Positions 7,466 through 49,768 of a stretch of DNA of 64,000 nucleotides are shown piece by piece. Position 1 is the stretch's first letter, and each line of letters starts with the position of its first letter. The stretch is from an uncultured virus (IMG/VR IMGVR_UViG_3300027749_002987) (lineage: Duplodnaviria; Heunggongvirae; Uroviricota; Caudoviricetes). Where the stretch lies: the IMG/VR virus record IMGVR_UViG_3300027749_002987. One strand, 5' to 3'. A model generated the notes under the pieces. The model saw only the letters and a program-made list of their open reading frames with translations, was not told the origin of the DNA and did no database searches. Both the position numbers and the translations under genes were made by a program.

Positions 7466-7777
7466 ATGGGCGACCCATTAGTGGCAACACTAATGAGTCT
7501 CCAAGCTAATGCCAATAACAAAAATGCCCAAGGTTCTTACACCTGGGATGCAATAAACTCCATTAGTAAAAATCAAGGTGCTCCGATGATCCGTTACGAT
7601 CAGTTTGCCGCACGTTGGGAAAATGATCCTATGCTTAAACAGATCGTTGATCGCTTTGACGGGCACGGTTTAGTAATCAAAACCAATGCCGCCGAACCTG
7701 AAAAGCATGGCGGCAACAAGAAAAGCAAAATAAGCCAAATGGCTAAAAGAGCTACAGGCAAAGCATTAAAGAAATAA
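7466..7777 (+). CDS. hypothetical protein; probably a -1 frameshift extension of the upstream gene
   Basis: Its frame is open from the upstream slippery site; no clear RBS. Confidence 0.6.
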   Translation: MGDPLVATLMSLQANANNKNAQGSYTWDAINSISKNQGAPMIRYDQFAARWENDPMLKQIVDRFDGHGLVIKTNAAEPEKHGGNKKSKISQMAKRATGKALKK

Positions 7778-42890: not shown

Positions 42891-43094
42891 ATGGCAACAG
42901 GTAAAGTAAAATGGTTTAATGAAACCAAAGGTTTTGGATTTATTACTCCAGACGGTGGCGGCGAAGAACTTTTCGCTCACTACTCGGCAATTCAAACATC
43001 AGGATTCAAAGTTCTGCAAGAGAATCAAGCAGTAACGTTTGATGTAGTTCAGGGACAAAAAGGCTTGCAGGCAGCAAATATTCAACCCAAGTAA
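42891..43094 (+). CDS. cspA: cold shock protein
   Basis: GKVKWFN..KGFGFI, FAHYSAI. Confidence 0.95.
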
Positions 43095-43107
43095 TTGGGT
43101 TAAAGAG

Positions 43108-43445
43108 ATAGTTGTAATCCCTTCAAAGTGAAGGCATTCTGGACCCGGGGGCAGTGCCCGGCAGGTCCACCATAAGCAGTTTGGGTCAGATGTTATAAGT
43201 CCATAGTGCATTCATATACAAGACTGTTTTTGATGGGCCTGACACAGTTTCGACAGGGTGAGATAATAGAGACGGCAACTCAGTAGGCGATGACTGTAAA
43301 TCAAGCAAAACTCGTAAATGCAAACGCAAATACATTCAAGTTTTTTGAAGTTGACTTCGACATTTCAGCAATGAATGACGAATCAGCATTCGAATTAGCT
43401 GCCTAAGAAACAGCACTTGCGAGGTAGGAAAGACCTTGTCACCAA
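43108..43445 (+). ncRNA. ssrA: circularly permuted two-piece tmRNA
   Basis: Acceptor piece ends CAGGTCCACCA (43172); coding piece starts GGGCCTGA (43235); G3.U70 pair; tag ORF 43320-43406 ends LAA; outer ends approximate. Confidence 0.88.
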
Positions 43446-43454
43446 ACATAACCA

Positions 43455-43479
43455 GAAAGCACCTTCGGGTGCTTTTCTT
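43455..43479 (+). terminator. intrinsic terminator
   Basis: GAAAGCACC-TTCG-GGTGCTTTT. Confidence 0.8.
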
Positions 43480-43494
43480 ATGATTAAATAGAAT

Positions 43495-44115
43495 ATGAAA
43501 ATTACATGTGGCCCACAACACGATCGTAGAGACTTTGAAATTGTTCTGCCATCAGAACCTAAACGACTAGCAGTGTTTGTTAGTGGCGGTGTCGATAGTG
43601 CAATTTTATATTATTTGTTGTTACTCGAAAATAGAAACTTAGGAAACATACATGAGATACAACCATTAATGGTACAACGCAAAGAAGGATCAAAATACTT
43701 TGCGAATATTGTTGTTGCACACGTTCGAGATCATTTTAACCTAGCACCAGCTACTGCAACCATAGTTGGCAACAACACATTGCCAGAGGAAGAGCAAGTT
43801 AAATCAGGAGTACTGGAATCATATCTAAGAGGGTTTGATATAGCGTACACTGGACTAATACAGCAACTACCACAGCACATGGTCAATTGGCAGCCAATAC
43901 CATACAAGCAAACTCCCAAGTTTAAAGCACCATTTGCAGACCTAGACAAAAGCCATATTATTGAATTGTGCGTACAATTAGACCAAACAGCATTATTTTA
44001 TCTAACGCATAGTTGTTCTGCACATGAAATCAGCAGATGCAGGAACTGTAACGGCTGTAACGAACGGGCCTGGGGATTTGATCAACTGGACATAAAAGAC
44101 CCTGGGACTATATAA
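43495..44115 (+). CDS. QueC-like PP-loop ATPase
   Basis: SGGVDS, THSC...C..C..C.ER. Confidence 0.7.
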   Translation: MKITCGPQHDRRDFEIVLPSEPKRLAVFVSGGVDSAILYYLLLLENRNLGNIHEIQPLMVQRKEGSKYFANIVVAHVRDHFNLAPATATIVGNNTLPEEEQVKSGVLESYLRGFDIAYTGLIQQLPQHMVNWQPIPYKQTPKFKAPFADLDKSHIIELCVQLDQTALFYLTHSCSAHEISRCRNCNGCNERAWGFDQLDIKDPGTI

Positions 44116-45990: not shown

Positions 45991-46140
45991 ATGCAATCTA
46001 ATTTTAGACAACATCAATTTAATACGATGCCCAAACAGGTAGGCGTTATAGCCTCTTATTGGTCAGCGATTAATTGCGGAAGTCTATCTTCATTAGATCG
46101 TACACCAGAGATTAGCAGGGTCCGGGAGGACATGATGTAA
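45991..46140 (+). CDS. putative attenuator leader peptide, 49 aa
   Basis: Uses all 20 amino acids; 3' end overlaps the antiterminator arm; weak RBS. Confidence 0.6.
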   Translation: MQSNFRQHQFNTMPKQVGVIASYWSAINCGSLSSLDRTPEISRVREDMM

Positions 46141-46165
46141 ACGTAAGTTTACCCAAACTCCAAGG

Positions 46166-46201
46166 ACCCTAGGACTAACACTCCTGGGGTTTTTTGTTTT
46201 T
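46166..46201 (+). terminator. conditional terminator (attenuator)
   Basis: ACCCTAGGA/TCCTGGGGT plus T tract; competes with 46117-46128 pairing. Confidence 0.75.
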
Positions 46202-46552: not shown

Positions 46553-46627
46553 GGCTTCATAGTATAATGGTTAGTACGGTGGCTTGTCACGCCATTAATA
46601 GGGGTTCGATTCCCCTTGGAGCCGCCA
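46553..46627 (+). tRNA. tRNA-Asp(GTC)
   Basis: Cloverleaf, CCA. Confidence 0.9.
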
Positions 46628-47036: not shown

Positions 47037-47088
47037 AGGATACTAACAGCAATTTTTATTTTTTTGGTAAAAAGAAAATGTATCCTGT
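47037..47088 (+). ncRNA. stem-ACAGCAA element 1 (GGT anticodon-like loop)
   Basis: AGGATAC/GTATCCT stem, TAACAGCAA, TTGGTAA loop. Confidence 0.65.
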
Positions 47089-47481: not shown

Positions 47482-47557
47482 GGGATTGTGGTGAAATGGT
47501 TATCACAGCGGACTTTTAATCCGTCAATTCCCGGTTCGAGTCCGGGCAGTCCTACCA
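47482..47557 (+). tRNA. tRNA-Lys(TTT)
   Basis: Cloverleaf, CCA. Confidence 0.9.
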
Positions 47558-47624
47558 TATGAAAACACACTTCCGACAGCAGGCGGAGGTGACAATGTCC
47601 ATTCGGGCGAGTGTGTTTCCATAT

Positions 47625-47700
47625 GGTAGCGTAGCATAGCGGCTAATGCACCACCTTCATACGGTGTTTATCGTGAGTTCGAGTCTCACCGCTACTACCA
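47625..47700 (+). tRNA. tRNA-Met/Ile2(CAT)
   Basis: Cloverleaf, CCA. Confidence 0.85.
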
Positions 47701-47788: not shown

Positions 47789-47850
47789 AGGATAGCAACA
47801 GCAAATTTAAAAATCTTTTCTCGAAAAAAAGCCAAAAAATGCTATCCTGT
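47789..47850 (+). ncRNA. stem-ACAGCAA element 2 (CGA anticodon-like loop)
   Basis: AGGATAGCA/TGCTATCCT stem; CTTTT-CTCGAAA-AAAAG. Confidence 0.65.
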
Positions 47851-47937: not shown

Positions 47938-48057
47938 GTCGTTGTCGTCTAATGGTAGGACGCTTATAAAAGGTTATCCTGTTAAGGATACAGTCAGCAA
48001 TTTACAACATTCCATGTCAAGGAAGAGATCTGGGTTCGAATCCCAGCAACGACACCA
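47938..48057 (+). tRNA. tRNA-Asp(GTC) with a 46-nt insertion in the anticodon stem
   Basis: Acceptor, D and T arms and CCA intact; insert is a permuted ACAGCAA element. Confidence 0.75.
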
Positions 48058-48121
48058 AGTTTATGAGTTCGTCTAGAAACCGGTAAATTGTAGTTTGGTC
48101 TACAAGCTCATAATTAGTTTT

Positions 48122-48597: not shown

Positions 48598-48600
48598 AGT

Positions 48601-48814
48601 TTTGTAAGTGTCAGCAAGAGAAAGTCACGCTATAAAAGTTTCTTCGAAGGACTGATATAGTAGAAGGTAATGGGTTCGATCCCCACCCGGGCACGTAGTG
48701 TCTGAGGGCAAAAGGTTGCAAGCTGGACCGGTATCCCAAGTGACGTATCTTGACCCTGCCGGCTTTATTACAAGGGAAAATGGTTGCGATATGAGGGACG
48801 CAACTACTTACAAA
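48601..48814 (+). ncRNA. structured RNA with terminal stem, TCAGCAA and a T-arm mimic
   Basis: TTTGTAAGT/ACTTACAAA; TGGG-TTCGATC-CCCA. Confidence 0.55.
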
Positions 48815-48870
48815 TTCAACAGACCCCCGCTTTCCAAGTTGTGCGGCGAACAACCTGGACTAATTCAAAT

Positions 48871-48952: not shown

Positions 48953-49044
48953 GCCAGCGAGACTTGGTAGTCAGAGAGTCCTTATAAGACTTTTAGCGCC
49001 AGATTAGCGTTCTTGAGAGGGTTCGATTCCCTCCGCTGGTACCA
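48953..49044 (+). tRNA. atypical tRNA with TAT anticodon (Ile?)
   Basis: Mini D loop, long variable arm, CCA. Confidence 0.7.
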
Positions 49045-49308: not shown

Positions 49309-49465
49309 AGGATCGGTACAGCAACTTCATATTAAATGGAACGCTAATCTTATGTTAATCGCTGGAGCCTGTATGGGCTTTGAAGGTTATTAGCAATAAT
49401 GAGATTAGATAGAGGAGTTTCGATAAGTCTCCTCGATAAAAACAAAAAGTAGAAAACGATCCTGT
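49309..49465 (+). ncRNA. stem-ACAGCAA element 4 (large insert)
   Basis: AGGATCG/CGATCCT, GTACAGCAA, internal hairpins. Confidence 0.65.
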
Positions 49466-49471
49466 TAATTT

Positions 49472-49702
49472 TGGATGACTACAGCAACCTAAAATACTAA
49501 CGTAACTGCTATAGACGGTGGTCGAAGGACACAGTAGAAATACTGTTCTAGCAATAGACGCTCAAGAAATAGATAGACTGGCAAAGCACCAGGTATGATT
49601 TACATACAGAAAAACATGTAATAGGCAACATGAATGTTGCTAGGGTCTGGGTGCTATAATTGGCCAGACCAGAAAATAAACAAACTAGCACGATCATCCT
49701 GT
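49472..49702 (+). ncRNA. stem-ACAGCAA element 5 (large insert)
   Basis: GGATGA/TCATCC, CTACAGCAA, internal hairpins. Confidence 0.65.
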
Positions 49703-49711
49703 TAAAGTTTT

Positions 49712-49768
49712 AGAATGTTAACAGCAACTTTAAATTTCAACTATAATCGAAAATAAAATACATTCTGT
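49712..49768 (+). ncRNA. stem-ACAGCAA element 6
   Basis: AGAATGT/ACATTCT (compensatory change), TAACAGCAA. Confidence 0.65.

Follow-up and report, generated by a model that had tools for sequence, protein, structure and literature searches.

A tRNA-like gene with a permuted module in its anticodon stem and its likeness to Y RNAs

YrlA RNAs, which are associated with Rsr/Ro60 (RF02553; PMC4201824; 10.1101/312249), consist, according to the parts of these sources available to us, of a tRNA-like domain that is joined via its anticodon stem to a handle. The available part of PMC4201824 (Chen et al.) also lists putative YrlAs of phage CcrColossus. The available text of Kjellin et al. 2021 (PMC7919456) describes Class I RNAs (RF01414) with a 6-bp terminal stem, an invariant 5' G, an AAG start, a CUGU end and an 11-nt box. 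There, they are said to occur in Dictyostelia alone and to have a DUSE promoter and the RRM partner Rnp1A. The main text of that paper contains neither "Y RNA" nor "virus" as a term. Two phage papers, PMC11482910 (Bas63) and PMC12282133 (CKA15), suggest Y RNAs near a Ro-like gene, and their available parts name no RNA or motif. Here we describe an interrupted tRNA-like gene (47938..48057, plus strand) from an uncultured virus of the Caudoviricetes (IMG/VR record IMGVR_UViG_3300027749_002987). We analyzed the initial 64 kb ("the window") of this 122.5-kb record, which is about 34% complete. The gene carries a small module in its anticodon stem, lies upstream of a Ro60-fold DUF2828 gene, and its RNA is probably tethered to the protein encoded there.

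The interrupted tRNA and its homologues

The gene and the ordinary tRNA-Asp of the same window are composed as follows.

47938..47964 (+): tRNA body 5' of the insert (acceptor 5' strand, D arm, G26, C27, U28), based on sequence and covarying pairs
47965..48010 (+): insert of 46 nt at 28/29, made up of an A-rich linker, the permuted module and a U/A/C-rich linker, based on sequence and 25 distinct homologues
47975..47982 (+): module 3' strand UAUCCUGU, equivalent to the end of a free module, pairing with 47985-47990
47984..48000 (+): 5' strand of the module (AAGGAUA) with the unpaired box CAGUCAGCAA, corresponding to where a free module starts
48011..48025 (+): anticodon hairpin UCC-AUGUCAA-GGA with A42 and G43, the covarying partners of U28 and C27
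48030..48057 (+): T arm, acceptor 3' strand, A73 and encoded CCA
46553..46627 (+): ordinary tRNA-Asp(GUC) with G73

A preliminary description, made from the letters alone, had called the acceptor stem, D arm and T arm intact, which agrees with the sequence (7-bp acceptor GTCGTTG/CAACGAC with A73 and CCA, 4-bp D stem, 5-bp T stem CTGGG/CCCAG) and with a score of 47.8 bits for the Rfam tRNA model (cut-off 29). The A15:U48 Levitt pair is also present. The 46 nt do split the anticodon stem, and the register noted earlier (47964-48009) is one of three that give an identical excision product, the others being 47965-48010 and 47966-48011. Homologues favor junction 28/29 (47965-48010). Removal of the insert restores CTTCC-ATGTCAA-GGAAG, as had been described, in a 74-nt cloverleaf of -25.8 kcal/mol. 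The insert is indeed a permuted element. Its 3' half (TATCCTG, 47975-47981) precedes its 5' half (AGGATACAGTCAGCAA, 47985-48000), that is, the end of one free-type element is fused to the start of one. The pairing probability of the 3' strand with 47985-47990 is 0.70-0.98 at the three pairs printed. The spacing from CAGCAA to the anticodon (15 nt) is similar to that in three free elements (13, 17 and 16 nt), again as described.

A default ARAGORN run does not call this gene; in relaxed intron mode, it is a weak call (Asp i(31,46)) alongside many spurious genes. Its designation as tRNA-Asp is doubtful. The GUC anticodon, the 7-bp acceptor stem and the CCA of a functional tRNA-Asp are all present. 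G73 and C38 are Asp identity bases by the E. coli rules. The ordinary tRNA-Asp at 46553 has both, whereas the interrupted copy has A73, A32 and A38 and thus lacks them. In a relative (locus L206), a single tRNA body bears differing loops, and 8-nt loops also occur among the homologues. As the window codes for the ordinary tRNA-Asp(GUC), the interrupted gene is dispensable for Asp decoding.

Uniqueness to this genome, which the preliminary description would have taken as a sign of a pseudogene or an assembly artefact, does not apply. A strict pattern of the permuted core matches 33 IMG/VR stretches, and the loci collected contain 25 distinct full tRNA-like sequences with the embedded module (inserts of about 44-53 nt). 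The interrupted tRNA is therefore neither a chance occurrence nor an assembly artefact. Pairing was analyzed in an alignment of 24 of these 25 homologues (25 pairs, 600 cells). It is found in 98.0% of the cells (41-53% when the partners are slid), and 12 of the 25 pairs have changes on both sides. The acceptor, D and T stems show conservation with covariation. There is also covariation across the insert (27:43 is CG in 17 and UA in 7; 28:42 is UA in 15 and GC in 9). Most homologues share the 28/29 junction, and the graft site is the same from lake phages to Firmicutes. In Firmicute genomes, including those of cultured strains (among them the commensals Dysosmobacter segnis and Hominicoprocola fusiformis, loci L311 and L312), the embedded copies adjoin DUF2828 and have canonical loops. 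An insert-free allele had no match in IMG/VR under the pattern used. One Firmicute locus (L311, 3119-3221) has, beside two module-bearing genes, a tRNA-like gene with an anticodon-arm insert that lacks the CAGCAA box.

Known tRNA introns (group I, bulge-helix-bulge) likewise place extra sequence in the anticodon arm, their removal restores the cloverleaf, and permuted tRNA genes are known. In contrast, many of the permuted forms considered here (see below) have no usable acceptor stem. A group I intron is ruled out by the length of 46 nt, too short as had been noted (the catalytic core is well over 100 nt), by the ends CA/AT/TT, which lack a terminal G, and by the lack of an Rfam intron match. 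For the other type, no bulge-helix-bulge was seen by inspection, and PF01974 was found in none of five phage records (the control matched four archaea).

The window contains more than 30 tRNAs plus a permuted transfer-messenger RNA (tmRNA). Because records of relatives reach 345-383 kb, and RNA runs with matches come from lakes, we consider the virus a freshwater jumbo phage. The two-piece permuted tmRNA (43059-43497, +) matches the betaproteobacterial Rfam family, which hints at a betaproteobacterial host. A further tRNA of the window (48953-49044, +) has a Leu-like body with a long variable arm, a UAU (Ile) anticodon and a weak Rfam score.

Free modules, permuted siblings and the DUF2828 gene

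Six free modules, all on the plus strand, lie between 47037 and 49768, upstream of the DUF2828 gene.

47037..47088 (+): free module RNA, anticodon-like hairpin with loop UUGGUAA (Rfam Class I RNA, 24.3 bits)
47789..47850 (+): free module RNA, anticodon-like hairpin with loop CUCGAAA
48122..48178 (+): free module RNA, Lys-like anticodon hairpin with loop CUUUUAA (Rfam Class I RNA, 23 bits)
49309..49465 (+): free module RNA, long payload of several hairpins
49472..49702 (+): free module RNA, long payload of several hairpins
49712..49768 (+): module ending 13 nt 5' of the DUF2828 start codon
49782..51197 (+): DUF2828/DUF7788 gene (471 aa, Ro60-like fold), coding for the putative partner

A free module is built from an end-joining stem, an unpaired box ending in CAGCAA and a variable payload. 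The one at 49712..49768 is possibly an autoregulatory site or the final RNA of the array. Relatives carry exact circular permutants of the interrupted tRNA, with the anticodon arm, T arm, closed acceptor and D arm between the module halves. Some of these siblings have a 4-bp acceptor stem or none. Elsewhere, the module is placed at the anticodon loop or in the variable loop, or it replaces the acceptor stem. From many of these forms, excision could yield no tRNA.

The interrupted tRNA is located 1.7 kb upstream of the DUF2828-clade gene, on the same strand. The encoded protein shares 12-17% identity with solved Ro60s and belongs to DUF2828/DUF7788, not to TROVE (PF05731). A strict scan around DUF2828 genes in three sets of 80, 80 and 77 loci, which partly overlap and are kin, found 234, 48 and 214 modules in sense and 2, 4 and 6 in antisense orientation. 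DUF2828 lies within 8 kb of 20 of 31 full-stem pattern matches and of none of 17 stemless ones; in metagenomes, the values are 5 of 7 and 0 of 20. Modules picked by position have 120 of 150 cells paired (81.6 +/- 4.6 when shuffled), and the motif is found at most 150 nt from the DUF2828 start in 124 of 207 loci. The module of Mycobacteriophage Moostard has its basal A-U pair changed to U-A. The DUF2828 family itself is found in 711 cultured-phage records, many bacteria, giant viruses and plants. Two of four giant-virus records with module arrays contain a DUF2828 gene, and in one giant virus, the array begins about 150 nt from the DUF2828 start codon, on the strand opposite to the gene.

Five of the six cultured phages examined have modules near DUF2828. 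Gp130 of Bas63 belongs to this family. According to the available text of the PhageMaP preprint, it counters the ppl defense system, and Y RNAs are guessed to be nearby. We find four module RNAs in the Bas63 tRNA cluster, one of them a permuted tRNA mimic. These are unannotated (at 7719, 7886, 8341 and 8428 of locus L398, about 82070-82910 of record MZ501086.1), and the last is overlapped from the other strand by a gene annotated as hypothetical. Listeria phage AG20 has three modules. In the part of a Listeria phage study available to us, three abundant unannotated transcripts are reported upstream of an Rsr-like gene, the product of which is found in virions. Judged by position, CKA15_055 would be the ortholog of the AG20 gene.

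Several further observations concern these regions. Genes for RNA ligase, CCA-adding and related RNA-repair functions occur near DUF2828 in Serratia phage BF (L400, 4319-11986) and AG20 (L402, 7755-11503). A freshwater-1 RNA (Rfam, 82.7 bits) is found within a cluster of DUF2828, modules and tRNAs (L254, 1007-1068). Head-to-tail module arrays with payloads of 40-50 nt are present in giant-virus-like contigs (L240, 2003-2230; also L004, L015, L091, L102, L109 and L119). In the window, an unannotated multi-stem RNA (48600-48815, +) has a 9-bp closing stem with GUCAGCAA just inside its 5' strand; its z is -1.9, RNA contigs cover the segment, and there is no Rfam match. It could be a divergent module RNA. 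Other hairpin-like unannotated segments among the tRNAs were seen by eye (46095-46190, 47556-47625 and 48062-48115); the two of these three that fall in the scanned range have no Rfam match.

Comparison with YrlA and Class I RNAs

Like YrlA, the interrupted tRNA has a tRNA-like domain with D and T arms, joined via the anticodon stem to a handle. Several RNAs with varied payloads occur per locus, near a gene with a Ro60 fold on the same strand. YrlA genes are expected within about 4 kb of a Ro60 ortholog on the same strand; the neighboring gene here lies within this distance, though it is of the DUF2828 clade. The putative YrlAs of CcrColossus have a similarly split anticodon stem with the same 28/29 branch, but the handle differs, and their neighbor is a true TROVE protein. 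The handle described here is a stem with CAGCAA, not GNCGAA near the 5' end. The interrupted tRNA is also unpermuted, with normal order, a free acceptor stem, an encoded CCA and a retained anticodon loop. The YrlA topology (T arm 5' of the D arm, closed acceptor, no free CCA) is seen instead in the siblings from relatives. RF02553 has no match in the window, and the permuted siblings score 26.5-41.6 (cut-off 69). ACAGCAA was not found in the five supplements searched of the six of PMC4201824. The interrupted tRNA may work like a Y RNA, yet by motif, topology and score it falls outside YrlA.

The modules resemble Class I RNAs in their short terminal stem, 5' G, box ending in CAGCAA beside the 5' strand, AAG start, CUGU end, variable interior and many copies. 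Two free modules of the window align with RF01414 from end to end at the scores listed above, and the best score elsewhere is 32.4 bits, all below the cut-off of 41.5. Exact CCTTACAGCAA boxes adjoin prokaryotic DUF2828 genes. The insert holds the AAG start and the CUGU end in permuted order (CUGU-U-AAG). Of the Class I box positions T3, C6, C9, A10 and A11, four of five agree in the insert and all five in 47037-47088. Among 387 modules, U follows CUG in 85% (not imposed by the scan), T3 is found in 45% and A11 in 93%, while the scan itself required C6, C9 and A10. The terminal stem of Class I RNAs joins their ends, as in the free modules, whereas in the interrupted tRNA the stem is internal and permuted. 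The DUSE promoter, located 60 nt upstream in Class I genes, is a eukaryotic element that a phage would not be expected to have. A dictyostelid DUF2828 protein was not confirmed in the searches made. Supplement 8 of PMC7919456, in the part available, includes rejected outgroup candidates for Class I RNAs (Capsaspora, Arabidopsis) in which the box is present, and one of them has a CUG at its 3' end. DUF2828 is also found in plants.

In the literature, we found no description of the module, the embedded tRNA or a link between Class I RNAs and Ro proteins, though subscription papers and preprint supplements may hold one. The module-bearing tRNA is real, conserved and apparently undescribed in print.

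A probable docking site rather than an intron

We consider it probable that the insert is a permanent domain, serving as the docking site for the Ro60-fold DUF2828 protein, and not an intron. The RNA would be transcribed within the tRNA array and, given its intact 7-bp acceptor stem and elbow, trimmed like a tRNA to genuine 5' and CCA ends. The module is predicted to form a short helix (G-C/A-U base) with an unpaired (A)CAGCAA box, branching from the anticodon stem at 28/29. There it may dock the neighboring DUF2828 protein, as the Ro-binding stem does in Y RNAs, which would make the RNA the non-permuted twin of the YrlA-like siblings in related phages. The resulting ribonucleoprotein would offer the shape of a tRNA and an anticodon loop to tRNA-handling enzymes, as bait or adaptor; these enzymes would probably be host tRNA-targeting defenses or nucleases. 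This role is the least certain step, and slightly more apt to fail than to hold. The preliminary description had left open a tether to a Ro-like protein or a new type of intron. The tether is well supported by comparative evidence, with binding itself predicted from gene linkage, and the intron is disfavored, because the module also encloses tRNA mimics whose acceptor stem has 4 bp or is missing, or takes the place of that stem. The split anticodon stem of the CcrColossus YrlAs, the differing loops on one body, the varying base 73 of the GUC copies and the embedded copies beside DUF2828 in Firmicutes also favor the tether. The anatomy, its conservation, the gene linkage and the predicted fold are direct results, from which processing, binding, the lack of splicing and the purpose are deduced.

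Several points weigh against a docking site. The module stem is invariant in the embedded set, so that it offers no covariation. For the unspliced RNA, energy folding gives -23.9 kcal/mol for the proposed fold and a minimum of -30.1 kcal/mol, with C27-G43 and U28-A42 at a probability of 0.0; their covariation thus fits a spliced product equally well, and excision does yield a clean cloverleaf in this copy. CCA is encoded in 21 of the 25 embedded homologues. Among the nine copies with 7-nt GUC loops (G73 in six, A73 in two, C73 in one), the majority has the Asp discriminator G73, which fits a chargeable tRNA. Concerning gene linkage, the search patterns were derived from DUF2828-adjacent copies, and the counts are not independent because the loci are kin. 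A strict match is lacking in 54 of 80 prokaryote-genome loci (some use variant ends), and Serratia phage BF has no convincing module within 6 kb of the gene. The RNA data described next are thin.

A new small intron is unlikely. The module would be a processing signal, with a nuclease cutting both linkers and a host ligase joining the halves to a decoding tRNA; permuted siblings would mature via a circle. The restored cloverleaf, the covariation across the insert, the prevalent 28/29 junction, the canonical loops of the Firmicute copies and the ligase genes near DUF2828 in two cultured phages would fit. However, linker lengths differ among homologues and there is no fixed splice-site motif, the module is present where excision yields no tRNA, no insert-free allele was matched, and the window has its ordinary tRNA-Asp. 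An RNA-library contig from a relative retains the insert-to-anticodon junction, and no 46-nt skip is among the 15 joints listed of 39, which is weak evidence. The ligase genes that the preliminary description proposed to look for elsewhere in the genome did not turn up: RtcB, an Rnl2-type ligase and a splicing endonuclease (EndA) were found in none of the five phage records, of which one is complete and has the gene. A ligase of the host could still do the joining.

It is improbable that the RNA is an unspliced working tRNA, charged and decoding, the module being a looped-out appendage that protects or regulates it. The covarying acceptor, D and T stems, the frequent CCA and G73 in most GUC copies speak for it; A73, A32 and A38 in this copy, the 8-nt loops and the swapped loops on one body do not. 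Next to the anticodon, a 46-nt branch with a bound 52-kDa ring would also be expected to clash with the ribosome.

Quite improbable, too, is a nicked two-piece variant of the tether, in which the loop between CUGU and AAG is cut as the spacers of tandem modules would be, and the halves are held by tRNA and module pairing. The insert does read as one module's end joined to the next one's start, and the spacers between tandem free modules measure 6-9 nt in the window and 2-4 nt in giant-virus arrays. YrlA of M. smegmatis accumulates in two pieces (PMC4201824, available part). That loop, however, has just 3-5 nt and closes a stable hairpin.

A pseudogene that a mobile repeat has hit, or a palindrome at the DNA level without an RNA role, would account for the near-palindromic core, the tandem arrays (at least two module copies in 16 of 125 loci of one set) and the giant-virus array opposite in strand to DUF2828, but is most improbable in view of the strong strand bias, the compensatory changes, the graft site shared from lake phages to Firmicutes and the missing empty allele.

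It is tempting to speculate, with confidence somewhat short of even, that DUF2828 and RNAs with the CAGCAA handle form a second Ro/Y system, parallel to the known one, that extends over phages, bacteria, giant viruses and an archaeal bin. As baits in the conflict between phage and host, it would display parts of tRNAs and even, as in this gene, an entire CCA-ended one, and Class I RNAs would be its eukaryotic members, binding a candidate dictyostelid DUF2828 protein. If true, RNAs thought to be unique to social amoebae and without a known mechanism would join a wider system, and the question of what Class I RNAs of Dictyostelium bind and do becomes directly testable. For annotation, there is a warning that such genes are called as intron-bearing tRNAs or overlooked. 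RNAs merely guessed at in two papers can now be named, in a laboratory phage whose protein counters a defense system, and the widespread uncharacterized DUF2828 family gains a defined candidate RNA partner. tRNA and Y-like RNA appear here as one design in two circular permutations, a point relevant to the origin of Y RNAs from tRNA.
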